4,788 nucleotides of DNA from a virus (Duplodnaviria > Heunggongvirae > Uroviricota > Caudoviricetes). The stretch is taken from IMG/VR virus record IMGVR_UViG_2537561727_000003, positions 1 through 4,788 of that record, one strand, 5' to 3'. The notes beneath the pieces were generated by a model. It worked only from the letters and a program-made list of their open reading frames with translations, was not told the DNA's origin and did no database searches. Position 1 is the stretch's first letter. The number at the start of each line of letters is the position of its first letter. Positions 1 to 4,788 of this stretch are shown one piece after another. The translations under genes and the position numbers were made by a program.

Positions 1-25
1 GCATCCCCCTGAATAAAAACCGGAG

Positions 26-439
26 ATGATGCCAGTTGCCCGTTATCTCTGCATTTTCATAAACGTTGGTTTGGGAGAAGCGGCAAAACGGGATGTGGGG
101 ACAGGGGAAAATCAGATACCGGACATGGCCTCTTTTGCCAGTGGTGATGGATGGATGAAATTACCCAACGGGAAAATCCTGCAATATGGTCGTGGTGCGG
201 TTACGCCGACATTATCGACGCAAACAATGAGAATTACATTCAGCATCCCTTTTCCTAAAAAAGTGGACTGCGCCATGCTTACTCATTCTGGTGATGGTGG
301 TGCGCCTTTAGGTGCTGGGCGAGGGTTCATGATGACTGCAGAAGGCCCAACATTAACCGGTTTTAATTCCGCTTACAGAACTGCATCAACCAGTTCCACA
401 GTATCGATGAATTACAGTTGGTGGGCTGTTGGTGAGTAA
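26..439 (+). CDS. Silent alternative tail-fibre C-terminal cassette (variable receptor-binding domain), expressed only after inversion
   Basis: Open frame from the ORF track (137 aa). The crossover site at 54-79 lies inside its 5' end, and codons 71-79 (GGA GAA = GE, preceded by GLG) are identical in frame to the GLGE codons of the minus-strand tail-fibre gene at the other site. Only 68-439 (about 119 aa, AAKRDVGTGENQ...WWAVGE) would be joined to the constant N-terminus after inversion. The ATG at 26 has a GGAG only 1 nt upstream (poor spacing), so independent expression is doubtful. A cognate chaperone gene follows 20 nt downstream. Confidence 0.65.
   Translation: MMPVARYLCIFINVGLGEAAKRDVGTGENQIPDMASFASGDGWMKLPNGKILQYGRGAVTPTLSTQTMRITFSIPFPKKVDCAMLTHSGDGGAPLGAGRGFMMTAEGPTLTGFNSAYRTASTSSTVSMNYSWWAVGE
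54..79. repeat. Left crossover site for a Hin/Gin/Cin/Pin-family serine invertase (26 bp, imperfect dyad)
   Basis: TTTTCATAAACG TT GGTTTGGGAGAA. The inner half (68-79) is the exact reverse complement of the inner half of the right site (1960-1971), and the 15-bp core 66-80 is a perfect reverse complement of 1959-1973. The central TT is compatible with the AA of the right site in inverted orientation. Confidence 0.8.
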
Positions 440-459
440 TTTTATTCAGGGTGATTTAT

Positions 460-903
460 ATGAACGAATATGTTTATAGCGCAAGGCATAATGCTTTTTT
501 CCCTGTGGATATGATTGATAAATATAAATCAGAGGGATGGGATTTATCAGATGCAAAGGAGGTGAATCAAAATATTATCAGTGAGTTTATGGCTGAACCG
601 CCACAAGGAAAAATCAGTATTGCCGGAGATGATGGGATGCCTGCGTGGGCAGATATTCCTCCACCCACGCATGAAGAGCTTATTGAAATTACTGAATCAG
701 AAAGACAGCTACTAATTAACCAGGCCAACGAATACATGAACAGTAAGCAATGGCCCGGTAAAGCCGCTATTGGTCGTCTGAAAGATGACGAACTGGCGCA
801 ATATAATTTGTGGCTGGATTATCTGGACGCACTGGTGCTGGTCGATACTTCCGGTGCGCCAGATATTGAATGGCCTACGCCTCCGGCAGTTCAGGCCAGA
901 TGA
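460..903 (+). CDS. Tail-fibre assembly chaperone (Tfa family), partner of the silent cassette
   Basis: C-terminus ...LWLDYLDALVLVDTSGAPDIEWPTPPAVQAR is the conserved Tfa C-terminal signature seen in lambda/Mu/P2-type tail-fibre assembly proteins. ATG at 460 is preceded by AGGGTGA (446-452); the ORF track starts at GTG 451, which has a weaker RBS context. It sits directly downstream of the tail-fibre cassette, as for Mu U' / P2 G. Confidence 0.85.
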   Translation: MNEYVYSARHNAFFPVDMIDKYKSEGWDLSDAKEVNQNIISEFMAEPPQGKISIAGDDGMPAWADIPPPTHEELIEITESERQLLINQANEYMNSKQWPGKAAIGRLKDDELAQYNLWLDYLDALVLVDTSGAPDIEWPTPPAVQAR

Positions 904-1480
904 CATCCGGCGCGGTGCTGGTATCTGTTGCCGTCACCGCGTCAATGTAATCCAGCACAGCGTTAAGTCTGGTTGTTTCTGCCTGCGTCAACTTCCGTCC
1001 GGCCTGTAATTTCAGCTGAATCAGACTAATGGAAGCCATTGCTGCATCAATCAGTGACTGGCGCTGTGCTTCTGCCGCGTCTACTGCGGCACTATGCTGT
1101 GCCTCAGTATCCGTCACCCATTTCTCACCATCCCATTTATCATATGGCGTTAACGGGGCGATAGTGGTTGTATTTTCAGGGTAATCACCCGGAGCTGTGA
1201 TTTCTTTCGATTCTCCTGTTTCGGTGCTATAGATGATTTCACCGCGATGGTCTGGCACATATTCCCATGAGTTAAAATCTGCAGAACGGCAGATTGCATA
1301 ACCAGCTTTATGTGTAACTGGTGCATCTAAACAAGAACATGCCGGGATACCGACGCCGACAGCGAGATATTCAGTTGATGTAGAAATATATTCACGCGTT
1401 TCACCATCATAATTATAAATGATAATGTCTCCCGCTTTTATGGCAATGAGTTCACTATTTAATACAGCTTTATTCATCAT
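875..1480 (-). CDS. Tail-fibre assembly chaperone (Tfa family), partner of the currently expressed tail-fibre variant
   Basis: 201 aa. C-terminus ...LNAVLDYIDAVTATDTSTAPDVIWPELPEA matches the Tfa C-terminal signature and the plus-strand Tfa. Its start ATG (1480-1478) overlaps the TGA stop (1479-1477) of the upstream tail-fibre gene (ATGA coupling). The AT-rich 5' half and GC-richer 3' half suggest a mosaic gene. Confidence 0.9.
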   Translation of the reverse strand: MMNKAVLNSELIAIKAGDIIIYNYDGETREYISTSTEYLAVGVGIPACSCLDAPVTHKAGYAICRSADFNSWEYVPDHRGEIIYSTETGESKEITAPGDYPENTTTIAPLTPYDKWDGEKWVTDTEAQHSAAVDAAEAQRQSLIDAAMASISLIQLKLQAGRKLTQAETTRLNAVLDYIDAVTATDTSTAPDVIWPELPEA

Positions 1481-2799
1481 GCAGCCCTCACAATATAATT
1501 AAAGGCGATGTTACGTGGACGATTTTCATTTGCTGTTGGAACAACATTTGCCGCCGAGAAGTGAACATCTTGTCGGATTTTTCGGTCATTAGCGTATGTC
1601 ATAGACACATTGATGTTATTCCGGACTGAGGTACCTCCGTAAAAAGCCCCACTCACACTTTGAACATCGACAATTGCATTAATTTCGCTGTTTACGCGCA
1701 ACTGACCAAAACCGCCAGTAATGTTTCGAATAGCATCTCCTTGCGATGAAAGCAGAGTTCGCCCACTATCCACACCACGTTCATCATCCCAGCCACGAAT
1801 AAACTCACCACGTAAATCAGGCAATTTATTGGTCGGGTAAGCCTTTGCCAGTTCCGGGTATTCTTCAGCAGAAAAAGCCGCACCATTGCATTTCAGCCAG
1901 CCTGTTGGCGGAGTGGCTGAAGGCCACGGAACAGGCACACCAACCGGTAATGCAGAGCCTTCTCCCAAACCAAGGTATGCGAGAAGACCAGCTACATCCT
2001 TTCCACTCAAATGAGTCAGCGTCTCATCCAGTGGCTGCTTACCTGACAGCGCATTGTTAATGGTGGTGCTGAATTTCGGGTCATTGTTAATGGCTGCGGC
2101 AATTTCTTTCAGTGTGTCCAGCGTGGCTGGCGCACCGTTAATCAGAGCGGTAATAGCGGCCTGAACAAACGCAGTGGTCGCAATCCGCGTGGTGTTATTT
2201 CCTGCGGCAGGCGTCGGCGCTTTTGGTTCTCCGGTAAATGTCGGATTATGTTTCTGCGCATACTGTGTATGAGGATCCTGTGCGGCAATGTGGTTTCTCA
2301 TCTGGTCATCCACATACAGCCTTAATTCCAGGACTTCATCATCCACGTATTTACGGGTCGCCAGTACCACCGACGGGTCGATTTTCAGCGTGATAGCTTC
2401 GGTATTCGTGACAACCAGAATCATGCGGATAGTCTGGGTACGACCACTGCCTTCCTGCAACTGCGGTTTGTACGTTTCCGGGCAGTTCGCCACCGCAATG
2501 AGTACGCCTTCATCATCATAAAGCCCAATCTCACGGATCCAGAATCCGCCCTCGTTCTCAGGGATGATTTGCTCCGCAATAATCTGGCTCTGGTTGTTCG
2601 GGTCAACACTCAGAAGATTCAGCGGCGCGATGCGTTTCTGGTTAATCAGTTTTGTCTGTGCCGGGTCTGGTGTCGGCAAGACACCATTCGCATCACCAAC
2701 GGCCATTTGCGTCAGATTCAGCTTACTGCCGAGCATCGTCGCGTTAGCCAGCCGTGCTGCGCCCTGATTAGTCAGAATGGCGTAGTATTTCACTGTCAT
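1477..2799 (-). CDS. Tail-fibre protein (P2 gpH / Mu S-like constant N-terminus fused to a variable C-terminal domain)
   Basis: 440 aa. N-terminus MTVKYYAILTNQGAARLANA...MAVGDANG resembles the N-terminus of P2 gpH-type tail fibres (from memory). The C-terminal part contains a tail-collar-like stretch (PVGVPVPWP...GWLKCNGAAFSAEEYPELAKAY). Start ATG 2799-2797 overlaps the stop of the upstream gpI-like gene. The crossover site at 1960-1985 lies in codons 273-281 (LLAYLGLGE), separating constant residues 1-280 from variable residues 281-440. Confidence 0.9.
   Translation of the reverse strand: MTVKYYAILTNQGAARLANATMLGSKLNLTQMAVGDANGVLPTPDPAQTKLINQKRIAPLNLLSVDPNNQSQIIAEQIIPENEGGFWIREIGLYDDEGVLIAVANCPETYKPQLQEGSGRTQTIRMILVVTNTEAITLKIDPSVVLATRKYVDDEVLELRLYVDDQMRNHIAAQDPHTQYAQKHNPTFTGEPKAPTPAAGNNTTRIATTAFVQAAITALINGAPATLDTLKEIAAAINNDPKFSTTINNALSGKQPLDETLTHLSGKDVAGLLAYLGLGEGSALPVGVPVPWPSATPPTGWLKCNGAAFSAEEYPELAKAYPTNKLPDLRGEFIRGWDDERGVDSGRTLLSSQGDAIRNITGGFGQLRVNSEINAIVDVQSVSGAFYGGTSVRNNINVSMTYANDRKIRQDVHFSAANVVPTANENRPRNIAFNYIVRAA
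1960..1985. repeat. Right crossover site for a Hin/Gin/Cin/Pin-family serine invertase (26 bp, imperfect dyad)
   Basis: TTCTCCCAAACC AA GGTATGCGAGAA. The half-sites are TTCTCCCAAACC and, in reverse complement, TTCTCGCATACC. This closely resembles the hixL sequence as I recall it (TTCTTGAAAACC AA GGTTTTTGATAA), about 20 of 26 positions. It lies inside the tail-fibre gene at the constant/variable boundary. Confidence 0.8.
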
Positions 2800-3407
2800 G
2801 CGTTTACTCTCAGGTTATCAATTAAATGAATGGCCGAGGCCGGGAAATAATCCCCTCCGACAATAATGGCCTCCGGGGTGTAGGGATAAACCGTCAGGGC
2901 GTCGCCGTGATAGCATCCCGCAACGGCAAAAATGTTGCCGGTTGTACTTAAACTGATAGCCAGTCCCGTCAGATGGCGGCTTGCCGGTTTTGCATCAGCA
3001 ACGAGGCGCTCCAGCTCCTGATACATTTCCTCGGTAATACCCTGCTCAAGCACGCCAACAACGATACGGAACGTCCCCGGCTCCTCGTTGAGTTGCCACC
3101 ACTCCCTCACCTCAATCAGATAGCCGAGCGGCTCCACCACACGGCGAATCGCACCAATAGTGCCCTTATGGCAGTGAATGAAATACGCATCGCGGATAAC
3201 AGCGCGTTTGGTCGCTTCCGGCCATTTATCATCCCACCTGTCGACCGAAAATGACCACGCCAGCCACGGCAGCAGATTTGCCGGACAGGTATCCGGGTTC
3301 CACAGCTCACGAATACTGACCGGCGTTTTTTCAATTTCCGCACAGGCTTTTGCGGCGGCGACTTCAAGCGGTGATGAGCCGGTCGGCAGCAGTCGCGAAT
3401 CACTCAT
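2796..3407 (-). CDS. Phage tail/baseplate protein, P2 gpI-like
   Basis: 203-aa ORF immediately upstream of the tail-fibre gene and downstream of the J-like gene, matching the P2 order J-I-H-G. A strong SD (GGAGG, reverse complement of about 3412-3416) precedes the ATG at 3407. The family assignment rests on position and recollection, not on a search. Confidence 0.8.
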   Translation of the reverse strand: MSDSRLLPTGSSPLEVAAAKACAEIEKTPVSIRELWNPDTCPANLLPWLAWSFSVDRWDDKWPEATKRAVIRDAYFIHCHKGTIGAIRRVVEPLGYLIEVREWWQLNEEPGTFRIVVGVLEQGITEEMYQELERLVADAKPASRHLTGLAISLSTTGNIFAVAGCYHGDALTVYPYTPEAIIVGGDYFPASAIHLIDNLRVNA

Positions 3408-4233
3408 CCGAGCCTCCGGTCACGACGCGGTATTCAGTACAGAAAGACGCCTGCGTATTGTTGAGCACGATGTCAGCCAGAGGTGCAGTCAGTTCGACAC
3501 GCTGCACGCCTTCCACATGCAAAGCGGCATAAATGGCAGACAGACGGATGTCGCGCCCCAGCCGGTGCTGTGCCGTGATATACGCTTCCAGTTTTTTCAC
3601 GGCGGCAGCGCGAATGGGTTCGCTTTCAGGACCAGGGTAAAGGTAAAGCGTGGCGTTTATCTGGTATTCAACGATGGCAGCAGACTGCACGGTCACACGA
3701 TCGGCCACCGGTCTGACGTCCTCGCCATTAAGGGCGTTACGCACCACGGCCAGCAGGTCTTCGGATGCGACACCGTTATTTTCACGTGACAGCACAGAGA
3801 TGGTGACGCAGGCCGGAGACGGACTGGTGACAGAGATATCCGCGACACGCCCGTCGGCACTGCGACCATGATACTGATAGGCTCCCACCGACCCGGCGAC
3901 GCTTAAGCCCTCAAACGCCTGCTGAATACGCAGACGATAATCGGTGTCAGACTCCATCACTGCCGGTGTCGGCGGGATAGTCGAATCATCTGCCGGGGTG
4001 ATAATCAGGCGCGTGGTGTTGTAATTGGCACCAATCACATCAAGGTCATTACCGGCGGCACAGGCCAGCATTACCGCCCGTGCGGCCTCATTCACACGCT
4101 GACGCCAGATAAGCTCACGATAAGCATTTTCCTCCAGCAGTTTGACGAGAGGCTCGGATTCCAGCGTCAGGGTACGGGCAACCGCCTCCTGCTGGTCTTC
4201 CGGGTATCCGCCGTGGCTGTCTGGAATATGACG
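3400..4233 (-). pseudogene. Baseplate assembly protein J-like, 5'-truncated (no start codon at the upstream end of the open frame)
   Basis: The minus-strand frame is open from a stop at 4236-4234 down to the TGA at 3402-3400 (277 codons). I translated 4233 to 4096 by hand and found no ATG, GTG or TTG; the first possible start is GTG at 4095, which is where the ORF track begins (231 aa). Baseplate J proteins of P2-like phages are about 300 aa, so the N-terminus appears to be lost at a deletion junction. A protein starting at GTG 4095 cannot be excluded. Confidence 0.6.
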
Positions 4234-4262
4234 TCAGCGCCACCGACATCACCAGCTCGTTT

Positions 4263-4439
4263 ATGGCTATCCGCAAGACCATGACCAGCAGCGGACGCAG
4301 CGCCACCTATGAGGCCAGCCGCAGCGAGGAAGCCAGCCACGCAGACCTCGCCTGGGCGACCATGCACGCCCTGTTAAATGAGCCACTCACCGCCGGTATC
4401 AGCACCCCGCTGACATCCACCATTCTGGAGTTTTACTGA
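4263..4439 (+). CDS. Short ORF or 3' remnant of an upstream packaging gene (by P2 synteny possibly the terminase large-subunit C-terminus), stop/start-overlapped with portal
   Basis: The plus frame is open from 4146 to the TGA at 4437-4439. The first ATG is at 4263 (MAIRKTMTSSGRSATYEASRSEEASHADLAWATMHALLNEPLTAGISTPLTSTILEFY, 58 aa), below the ORF track's apparent length cut-off. Its TGA shares the A at 4439 with the portal ATG (TGATG). There is no usable start at the 5' end of the open frame, so it may be a truncated remnant. Confidence 0.35.
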   Translation: MAIRKTMTSSGRSATYEASRSEEASHADLAWATMHALLNEPLTAGISTPLTSTILEFY

Positions 4440-4788
4440 TGAGCAAGAAAAAAGGGAAAACACCGCAACCTGCGGCAAAAAAAATGACTGCCAGCGCCCC
4501 GAAAATGGAGGCATTCACCTTTGGCGAGCCGGTGCCGGTACTCGACCGCCGTGACATTCTGGATTACGTCGAGTGCATCAGTAACGGCAGATGGTATGAG
4601 CCACCGGTCAGCTTTACCGGCCTGGCAAAAAGTCTGCGTGCTGCCGTGCATCACAGCTCGCCGATTTACGTCAAACGCAATATTCTGGCCTCGACATTTA
4701 TCCCGCATCCGTGGCTTTCCCAGCAGGATTTCAGCCGCTTTGTGCTGGATTTTCTGGTGTTCGGTAATGCGTTTCTGGAAAAGCGTTA
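4439..4788 (+). CDS. Phage portal protein (P2 gpQ-like), 5' part; continues beyond the window
   Basis: ATG at 4439 with GGAG about 10 nt upstream. Translation MSKKKGKTPQPAAKKMTASAPKMEAFTFGEPVPVLDRRDILDYVECISNGRWYEPPVSFTGLAKSLRAAVHHSSPIYVKRNILASTFIPHPWLSQQDFSRFVLDFLVFGNAFLEKR stays open to the window end and matches my recollection of P2-family portal N-termini. The ORF track does not list it because it has no stop inside the window. Confidence 0.8.
   Translation, partial: MSKKKGKTPQPAAKKMTASAPKMEAFTFGEPVPVLDRRDILDYVECISNGRWYEPPVSFTGLAKSLRAAVHHSSPIYVKRNILASTFIPHPWLSQQDFSRFVLDFLVFGNAFLEKR

Follow-up and report, generated by a model that had tools for sequence, protein, structure and literature searches.

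A probable invertible tail-fibre segment in a decayed P2-like prophage of Escherichia coli

We conclude that positions 54-1985 of the window (the whole stretch of 4,788 nucleotides analysed here) are very probably the invertible tail-fibre segment of a P2-like (Peduovirus-type) E. coli prophage, a switch of the Hin/Gin/Cin/Pin family. The closest characterised relative of the segment is the P segment/Pin system of prophage e14. The switch in the source strain appears still able to flip, and its output there is probably silent. The features of the segment and its immediate surroundings are as follows.

1-53, minus strand: leader from the left crossover site to the invertase start codon, with a ribosome-binding-site-like AGGGGGA; the invertase reads leftwards out of the window
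54-79, no strand: left (invertase-proximal) 26-bp crossover site, TTTTCATAAACG-TT-GGTTTGGGAGAA, central dinucleotide at 66-67
66-1973, no strand: invertible segment, centre to centre, about 1.9 kb
68-439, plus strand: Sv', the alternative C-terminal exon of the fibre (Pfam Gp53-like_C, PF21882, E=2.6e-13)
460-903, plus strand: tfa', the assembly chaperone paired with Sv', 147 aa (Pfam Caudo_TAP, E=4e-30)
875-1480, minus strand: tfa, the TfaE-like assembly chaperone paired with Sv, 200/201 aa (Pfam Caudo_TAP, E=1.8e-32)
1477-1973, minus strand: Sv, the tip of H (Pfam Collar domain)
1477-2799, minus strand: tail-fibre gene H, 440 aa, in which the constant part Sc (1974-2799) and the variable part Sv (1477-1973) are now joined
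1960-1985, no strand: right 26-bp crossover site, within H, TTCTCCCAAACC-AA-GGTATGCGAGAA, central dinucleotide at 1972-1973

Both crossover sites have the layout of the Hin, Gin and Pin sites, with imperfect 12-bp half-sites flanking a 2-bp centre (12-2-12; the 26-bp site is defined in PMC3798978), and they lie in inverted orientation with matching centres, TT at 54-79 and AA at 1960-1985 on the plus strand. The arms of the inverted repeat (54-80 and 1959-1985) are 27 nt each, are 81% complementary and are separated by 1,878 nt. The 15-nt core, TTGGTTTGGGAGAAG, has exactly two copies in the window, on opposite strands (66-80 and 1959-1973); two core matches were seen in 0 of 200 dinucleotide-preserving shuffles, with a chance expectation of 0.01, and a looser scan for the 26-bp architecture found these two sites only in the window, where 0.06 were expected. 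The first-pass annotation had described two inverted 26-bp sites of Hin/Gin type with a perfect 15-bp core and compatible central dinucleotides, and the coordinates, the chance test and the AA/TT centres all agree with it.

The core encodes a conserved peptide (LGLGE) at the boundary between the constant and variable parts, in both reading frames, and the inverted repeat could on these grounds be regarded as a mere conserved coding motif that serves as a substrate for homologous exchange between phages. However, the full 12-2-12 half-site architecture is present, the sites are identical to functional sites of e14 and of enteropathogenic E. coli (EPEC), a cognate invertase adjoins, and an exact reciprocal inversion within the core is found between strains. 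We consider that this last observation, made with the O157:H7 genomes F7386 and EC4115, effectively refutes the coding-motif reading, to which we attach almost no probability. When F7386 is flipped in silico at the central dinucleotides, it equals EC4115 with 100.000% identity over 9,203 bp; both genomes carry the right and the left site sequences, and the sole difference between the sister prophages is the exact inversion at these sites. Both orientations are found in complete E. coli genomes, with approximately 61 in the orientation of the window and 74 with the flipped junction (the 74 being counted by junction). The module of the window is itself 100% identical to copies in other assemblies.

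The layout inside the segment is convergent, with the Collar tip and its Caudo_TAP chaperone on the minus strand, the Gp53-like_C tip and its Caudo_TAP chaperone on the plus strand, and a 29-nt overlap between the 3' ends of tfa and tfa'. Comparison of the Sv and Sv' tips detected no similarity (E=29), and the similarity between tfa and tfa' is limited to the C-terminal 70 or so residues, at 36% identity. This agrees with the original description of about 1.9 kb holding two unrelated, convergent tips, each with its own Tfa. In the orientation of the window, Sv' is detached from the constant part and is read mechanically as an ORF at 26/29-439; it has a weak match to the C-terminus of a short tail fibre. 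The H protein contains the Pfam domains Phage_tail_fib (residues 1-150) and Collar (287-334), and its residues 282-438 resemble both the T4 gp37 tip and a short tail fibre. Flipping the segment in silico replaces the current 440-aa H by an in-frame H of 399 aa that ends in Sv', the reading frame being kept in both orientations through the common ...LLAYLGLGE motif. In EC4115, the flipped H is a single continuous ORF. The G/C/P-segment design that had been recognised at the outset is thus upheld, with one site inside the fibre gene and an in-frame product of 440 or 399 aa in either state. Annotation of the flipped fibre gene by PGAP gives a pseudogene and a fragment.

The window is one entire contig of the draft scaffold JH954133.1 (GCA_000304115.2), the reverse complement of 8012-12799 in the scaffold sequence that we examined. 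The first reading had predicted a serine recombinase of 180-200 aa within 1 kb to the left, and such a gene is found on the neighbouring contig: it is full-length, encodes 197 aa with the Pfam domains Resolvase and HTH_7, and has its ATG 3 bp to the left of window position 1, equally in the source scaffold and in intact relatives. The final 65 bases of the neighbouring contig are identical to window positions 1-65, and that contig ends inside the left crossover site. The orientation given to the window contig in the scaffold is opposite to the one that its 65-nt overlap with the invertase contig would imply. We considered whether this placement reflects a real, larger inversion, with the left site recombining with a secondary site in Q, and rejected it, since neither the window nor 8 kb from an intact relative contains a crossover-like site matching at 15/24 or better.

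The invertase sequence is identical to the copy in intact relative prophages, matches the Mu Gin structures 3uj3/4m6f with E=1e-94, and shows 86% identity to PinE of e14 (159/184) and 77% to Mu Gin (148/193). In systems of this kind, the recombinational enhancer is a cis-acting element with two Fis sites that normally lies within the 5' portion of the invertase gene. Here, one Fis-like 15-mer covers coding nt 94-108, the position that it also has in gin, and a second covers 131-145 and is identical in pinE; their spacing is 37 bp, in a region where conservation of the DNA is confounded by protein coding. The protein retains Ser9, Met114, the basic helix-B residues K46/K47/R50 and the Fis-contact patch Q150/R153/L154 (Gin numbering). 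In Hin, K47/R48/K51 and Q151/R154/L155 contact Fis/enhancer, and the wild-type Met114 represents the Fis-dependent state (PMC3798978, PMC3575834). The switch may accordingly depend on Fis and an enhancer.

We suggest that dimers of the invertase, encoded immediately to the left of the segment, would bind both 26-bp sites and cut the two strands in a staggered manner at the AA/TT centres, after which one pair of subunits would rotate by 180 degrees and the DNA would be religated with about 1.9 kb inverted. Because one site lies inside H, inversion would swap the C-terminal, receptor-binding part of the fibre (Collar-type Sv for gp53-like Sv') together with the matching Tfa. The outcome would be a fibre of 440 or 399 aa and presumably two host ranges; that the two tips confer different host ranges is suggested by the precedent of Mu and P1 and by the unrelated tip domains.

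The P segment and Pin of e14 in E. coli K-12 are credited to Plasterk & van de Putte 1985 as cited in PMC4272514, which gives e14 as phase-varying at 51:49 (Table S1). The invertase-proximal site of e14 is identical to the one here (TTCTCCCAAACC AA CGTTTATGAAAA), and the spacing of approximately 67 bp from the site to the invertase ATG is the same. DNA identity is 87% between window 3-80 and the stfE/pinE spacer, 89% between 748-1527 and tfaE/tfaP, and 96% between 1784-1976 and stfE. The convergent layout of two tips and two chaperones is shared, and in both cases the prophage is defective. The differences are that e14 is a lambdoid element whereas the prophage here is P2-like, that the half-site in the constant part is GGTTTTCGAGAG in e14 but GGTATGCGAGAA here, that the other arm carries StfP/TfaP in place of a gp53-like tip with a 147-aa Tfa, and that PinE has 184 aa compared to 197 aa for the present invertase.

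A sister module lies in a P2 remnant of EPEC E2348/69, and its phase variation was established by sequencing and PCR (Goldberg et al. 2014, PMC4272514 Table S1). The same 15-nt core is present at both sites, at the published inversion coordinates (2,977,580-2,979,467); the gene order (Sv, tfa, tfa', gp53-like Sv', invertase, sheath) is the same, the segment is of the same size (1,888 bp in EPEC, about 1.9 kb here), and the common parts have 87-93% DNA identity. It too is a decayed P2-like remnant, which flips experimentally at 93:7 (PMC4272514). On the other hand, the two invertases are only 77% identical (148/192), and EPEC has lost the constant part of H, its core directly adjoining a fragment of an integrase, whereas the window keeps H, I and most of J, its deletion lying further upstream.

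With Mu G/Gin (and P1 C/Cin), the segment shares a serine invertase adjoining the segment, 26-bp sites, one of them within the fibre gene, and a choice between S/U and S'/U' sets; the identity to Mu Gin given above includes Ser9, Met114 and the Fis-contact residues. Yet there is no DNA similarity between the Mu G segment and the segment here, the central dinucleotide of gix is TC/GA rather than AA/TT, and Mu has a 3-kb segment on another phage backbone. To our knowledge, canonical P2 has no invertase at the Z/fun position. In P2-like phages, this hotspot has the same location as the present module, between the fibre/assembly genes and the sheath gene FI, and a survey reported a DNA invertase there with inversion of neighbouring genes, although that study was a survey without site analysis (bioRxiv 10.1101/2024.10.15.618418).

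The remainder of the window shows what has become of the prophage.

2796-3407, minus strand: P2 gpI-type baseplate/tail protein (context; Pfam Tail_P2_I, E=2.9e-56)
3400-4206, minus strand: baseplate J without its start and first 33 or so codons (context; Pfam Baseplate_J); homology to intact J stops at 4206
4205-4206, no strand: deletion junction J'::P', with 2 bp of microhomology (TA); compared with E. coli 65COLEC, 9,066 bp have been lost
4207-4788, plus strand: last 235 nt of terminase gene P (58-aa ORF at 4263-4439; Pfam Terminase_6C) and first 116 codons of portal gene Q, which is cut by the contig end

Pfam matches, the scaffold context and intact relatives all place the prophage as P2-like (Peduovirus-type), with the order J-I-H-tfa ... 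FI-FII-E-T-U-D-ogr and with P-Q on the opposite strand. Identity to an intact relative prophage is 100% over window 1-4206, and identity to P/Q of 65COLEC is 97.9% over 4207-4788. The deletion joins approximately codon 34 of J to nt 1539 of P, and it has taken capsid, lysis and baseplate genes: V, W, R, S, L, M, N, O, the lysis genes and most of P are absent. The suspicion in the first-pass annotation that the surrounding prophage is decayed is therefore borne out by a 9,066-bp deletion mapped against an intact relative, and the remnant is incapable of making virions. No sigma-70-like promoter upstream of J'-I-H and no TGT-N12-ACA (Ogr-type) dyad was found in the window. The late promoter that drives V-W-J-I-H is one that we take, from the textbook P2 late operons, to be placed upstream of V and hence lost with the deletion. 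As the 9-kb deletion would take away the promoter of the fibre operon, flipping is probably silent in this prophage and the switch is probably without phenotype.

It could be argued that J'::P' is a chimeric join of the draft, and that the prophage is really intact with the switch serving a viable phage. Neither species-representative genomes nor complete E. coli genomes contain the exact junction, no match was obtained for the 231-aa J' ORF, the gene caller's 223-aa version of the J' product is on record in the source assembly alone, and the sequence comes from a draft scaffold with gaps. Against this, the 2-bp microhomology is too short for a repeat-induced misjoin, remnants broken at the identical base of P but with different left partners exist in four other independent assemblies, and the complete genome 1218KP has a similar J-P' remnant. 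We therefore regard an artefact of assembly as quite improbable and treat the deletion as real. A break at nt 1539 of P was found in none of 80 metagenome contigs scanned, a further contig scan for the P-gene breakpoint gave one stray match, and an E. coli-wide search for it was uninformative because intact copies of P dominate each record.

A decayed prophage could also harbour a frozen relic, in which inversion no longer takes place in the source strain even though the sequences of the sites and of the invertase gene are undamaged, the invertase being unexpressed or the enhancer defective. In keeping with this, a simple scan of the leader found no sigma-70-like promoter for the invertase, the enhancer in the invertase gene is a candidate only, and the window contig covers both sites in one orientation. 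However, demonstrably inverting prophages have an identical invertase and identical copies of both sites, e14 and the EPEC P2 remnant still flip despite being defective, and the break of the neighbouring contig falls inside the left site, as would be expected if reads were in conflict there. We judge such a relic to be unlikely and favour a switch that can still invert.

A bolder proposal, which we put forward only tentatively and consider doubtful, is that, in the culture that was sequenced, the invertase of this defective and promoterless remnant was actively at work. The contig break and the inverted scaffold placement would then be footprints of a mixed population, and the invertases of dead prophages might persist by acting in trans on other segments or through rearrangements at quasi-sites. 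If this were true, the EPEC integrase fragment that abuts the core could exemplify a quasi-site rearrangement.

This type of switch is already well known, invertase-driven fibre switching having been recognised since Mu, P1 and e14, and in P2-like E. coli prophages fibre switching has already been shown experimentally, such that the value of the present case as a discovery is small. The first-pass annotation overrated its interest, as the system is long known and the promoter of the fibre operon is probably lost here. The practical use is as a clean case of switches breaking contigs, confusing scaffolders and misleading annotation pipelines. Defective prophages often retain a working invertase, and this may have a bearing on genome stability and on the trans-activation of other invertible loci.

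The segment at 54-1985 is bounded by an inverted repeat whose 27-nt arms (54-80 and 1959-1985) are 81% complementary and lie 1,878 nt apart. Within them are two 26-bp crossover sites, each with a 2-bp centre between two imperfect 12-bp half-sites; the centres read TT and AA on the + strand and are therefore the same when the two sites are aligned as inverted copies. Exactly two copies of the 15-nt core, TTGGTTTGGGAGAAG, are present in the window, one on each strand (0.01 expected from shuffles), and a looser scan for the whole architecture gave two matches in the window, these sites alone (0.06 expected). The first-pass annotation had proposed inverted 26-bp sites with a perfect 15-bp core and compatible centres, and we find them as follows.

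Crossover sites and genes of the segment
54-79, left 26-bp crossover site, TTTTCATAAACG-TT-GGTTTGGGAGAA
1960-1985, right 26-bp crossover site, TTCTCCCAAACC-AA-GGTATGCGAGAA
26/29-439, + strand, fibre tip ORF (Pfam Gp53-like_C)
460-903, + strand, second Tfa chaperone, 147 aa (Pfam Caudo_TAP)
875-1480, - strand, Tfa chaperone, 200 aa (Pfam Caudo_TAP)
1477-2799, - strand, P2-type tail-fibre gene H, 440 aa (Pfam Phage_tail_fib N-terminus; Collar at residues 287-334)

The Pfam assignments agree with the earlier description of two unrelated fibre tips, each with its own Tfa and arranged convergently: the Collar-type and gp53-like tips are unrelated (E=29), and similarity between the two chaperones is confined to the C-terminal ~70 residues (36% identity). 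Of the tips, the Collar-type one is similar to the tip of T4 gp37 and to a short tail fibre, and the gp53-like one shows a weak resemblance to the C-terminus of a short tail fibre. In-silico inversion between the central dinucleotides leaves H in frame at 399 aa, with the gp53-like tip fused to the constant part via the same ...LLAYLGLGE motif. The 3' ends of the convergent chaperone genes overlap by 29 nt (875-903) with no terminator between them, and an 18-nt inverted repeat (813-830 / 939-956) encodes their common C-terminal motif (LDYLDA / LDYIDA). We note a further 16-nt inverted repeat (3-18 / 440-455, 15/16 matching), TTTTATTCAGGG(G/T)GAT, which forms an RBS-like leader on opposite strands directly upstream of the start codons of the invertase and tfa'; it may be a coincidence (chance expectation ~0.1, a rough estimate) or a vestige of an earlier recombination event.

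Read on the opposite strand, L007:8012-12799 gives the window, which spans positions 1-4788 of draft scaffold JH954133.1 (GCA_000304115.2) and makes up one entire contig at the scaffold end, followed by ten Ns (L007:8002-8011). The last 65 bases of the next contig (L007:7937-8001) are identical to window 1-65, this contig stopping within the left crossover site immediately before the central TT; its gene order is invertase, then sheath, tube, E, T, U, D, ogr and the host gene fieF. Joining the contigs by the 65-base overlap gives the gene order of the intact relatives (L001, L003-L005), the orientation of the window contig being opposite in the scaffold. We rejected a true inversion as the explanation because no secondary site scoring 15/24 or better was found to allow one in the window or in 8 kb of an intact relative, and therefore put the orientation down to scaffolding; a mixed-orientation culture may have confused assembler and scaffolder.

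The serine recombinase of 180-200 aa anticipated near the left site is a 197-aa Resolvase+HTH_7 gene on the neighbouring contig, its ATG lying 3 bp left of window position 1. It is full-length and does not differ from the copy carried by intact prophages; its identity is 86% with PinE and 77% with Gin, and its match to crystal structures of Gin has E=1e-94. It retains Ser9, Met114, the basic helix-B residues and the Q/R/L Fis-contact patch, all of which are marks of Fis/enhancer-dependent invertases (PMC3575834, PMC3798978). Four of the five defining features of Hin/Gin/Cin/Pin systems are present, one of them, the occurrence of both orientations, in sister prophages. For the fifth, the enhancer, the invertase gene has putative Fis sites, Fis-like 15-mers at coding nt 94-108 (matching gin in position) and 131-145 (identical in pinE), spaced 37 bp apart. 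The switch is a member of this long-known family. Invertases in this P2 hotspot were noted in a recent survey (bioRxiv 10.1101/2024.10.15.618418). The switch itself is nothing new and is thus of low interest.

The surrounding prophage is, as first supposed, decayed. Window 1-4206 is 100% identical to L004, an intact prophage integrated at the same position in the chromosome; at junction 4205/4206, J without ~33 codons is fused to nt 1539 of the terminase gene P, with TA microhomology. Relative to the intact prophage of strain 65COLEC, 9,066 bp are deleted (V, W, S, R, the lysis genes, L, M, N, O and most of P). From textbook P2, the V-W-J-I-H late promoter presumably falls within the deleted stretch, and no replacement promoter-like site or Ogr dyad was found for the fibre operon. 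It follows that the fibre genes are probably silent here and that virion production is impossible for this prophage.

On the P side the deletion ends at P nt 1539 (...|TATCCGCCGTGG; ...|TATCCGCCGTGGCTG; window 4205-4207), an endpoint common, to the base, to four other P2-like remnants (L019 and L022 at ~9943, L023 and L026 at 9943). Their left partners differ (a lysozyme-like lysis gene, sheath cut to 284 aa, sheath cut to 211 aa, and P nt 882), and they are not one clade, since their P'-Q haplotypes differ at 7-19/526 nt (1-4%). The sequences suggest that P nt 1539 may be a recurrent breakpoint, in a look-up biased toward this region: the remnants were found by a 58-aa ORF, so that endpoints could fall only within a stretch of about 80 nt. 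In an unbiased sample, 80 metagenome contigs that carry the same 24-mer, no break fell at P nt 1539 and seven fell elsewhere (nt 475-1492). An independent remnant adjoining ogrK in the complete genome of E. coli 1218KP (L018, 4093-8498) has the order ogr, H, I, near-complete J, P' (from nt 1492) and Q, a J-to-P deletion like that of the window in another lineage; its nt 1492 endpoint is seen again in metagenome contig L080. An identical ogr::P' fusion (P nt ~1596; ~9800-10020) lies beside fieF-pfkA in L020/L027 and beside trhP/yegQ in L025, one junction found at two chromosomal attachment sites. The remnants, ~10 kb long, retain ogr, P', Q, a cargo hotspot, A, B, cox, C and int, and may have kept their mobility, perhaps as excision-proficient or satellite-like P2 derivatives.

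Related copies bear directly on flipping. The sister prophage occurs in opposite orientations with the same flanking proteins in O157:H7 F7386 and EC4115; the junctions show reciprocal exchange inside the core, and F7386 flipped in silico at the centres matches EC4115 with 100.000% identity over 9,203 bp. Among complete E. coli genomes, counted by junction, the window's arrangement is found in 61 and the flipped Sc-Sv' junction (constant part to alternative tip) in 74. The invertase-proximal site is, base for base, the pinE-proximal site of e14, the closest characterised relative, and stretches of the segment match e14 tfaE/stfE at 89-96% identity. Paired-end sequencing and PCR revealed phase variation in e14 (51:49) and in the P2 prophage segment of EPEC E2348/69 (2,977,580-2,979,467; 93:7) (Goldberg et al. 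2014, PMC4272514). At both of its published boundaries the EPEC segment carries the window's 15-nt core, and it matches the window in gene order; the parts that the two share are 87-93% identical, and the EPEC remnant is even more decayed than the window's prophage.

In that EPEC record (L031 ~3040-3095; 2,977,540-2,977,594) a piece of an integrase gene runs exactly up to the crossover core, which makes the outer half-site, TTCTTCTTTCCC, integrase-derived, and flipping of the segment at 93:7 is reported all the same; from the sequence, the junction resembles the product of an invertase-mediated rearrangement involving a quasi-site. In EC4115 (L013:3975-5174, flipped), RefSeq/PGAP calls an 'incomplete' fibre pseudogene and a separate 136-aa 'gp53-like' protein where the fibre ORF is continuous over 399 codons; the split annotation is an artefact of the invertible segment. 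L002 (NC_041848, 'Escherichia phage P2' from O157:H43 T22; region ~4504-5110) carries the constant-part-type outer half-site, TCTTCTCGCATACC, at both sites and an invertase annotated at only 165 aa; its invertase-proximal region seems to be rearranged, or its invertase truncated.

The F7386/EC4115 inversion and the phase variation of e14 and the EPEC segment prove that this module type flips, defective prophages included. By analogy, we would expect it to flip in the window's own strain.
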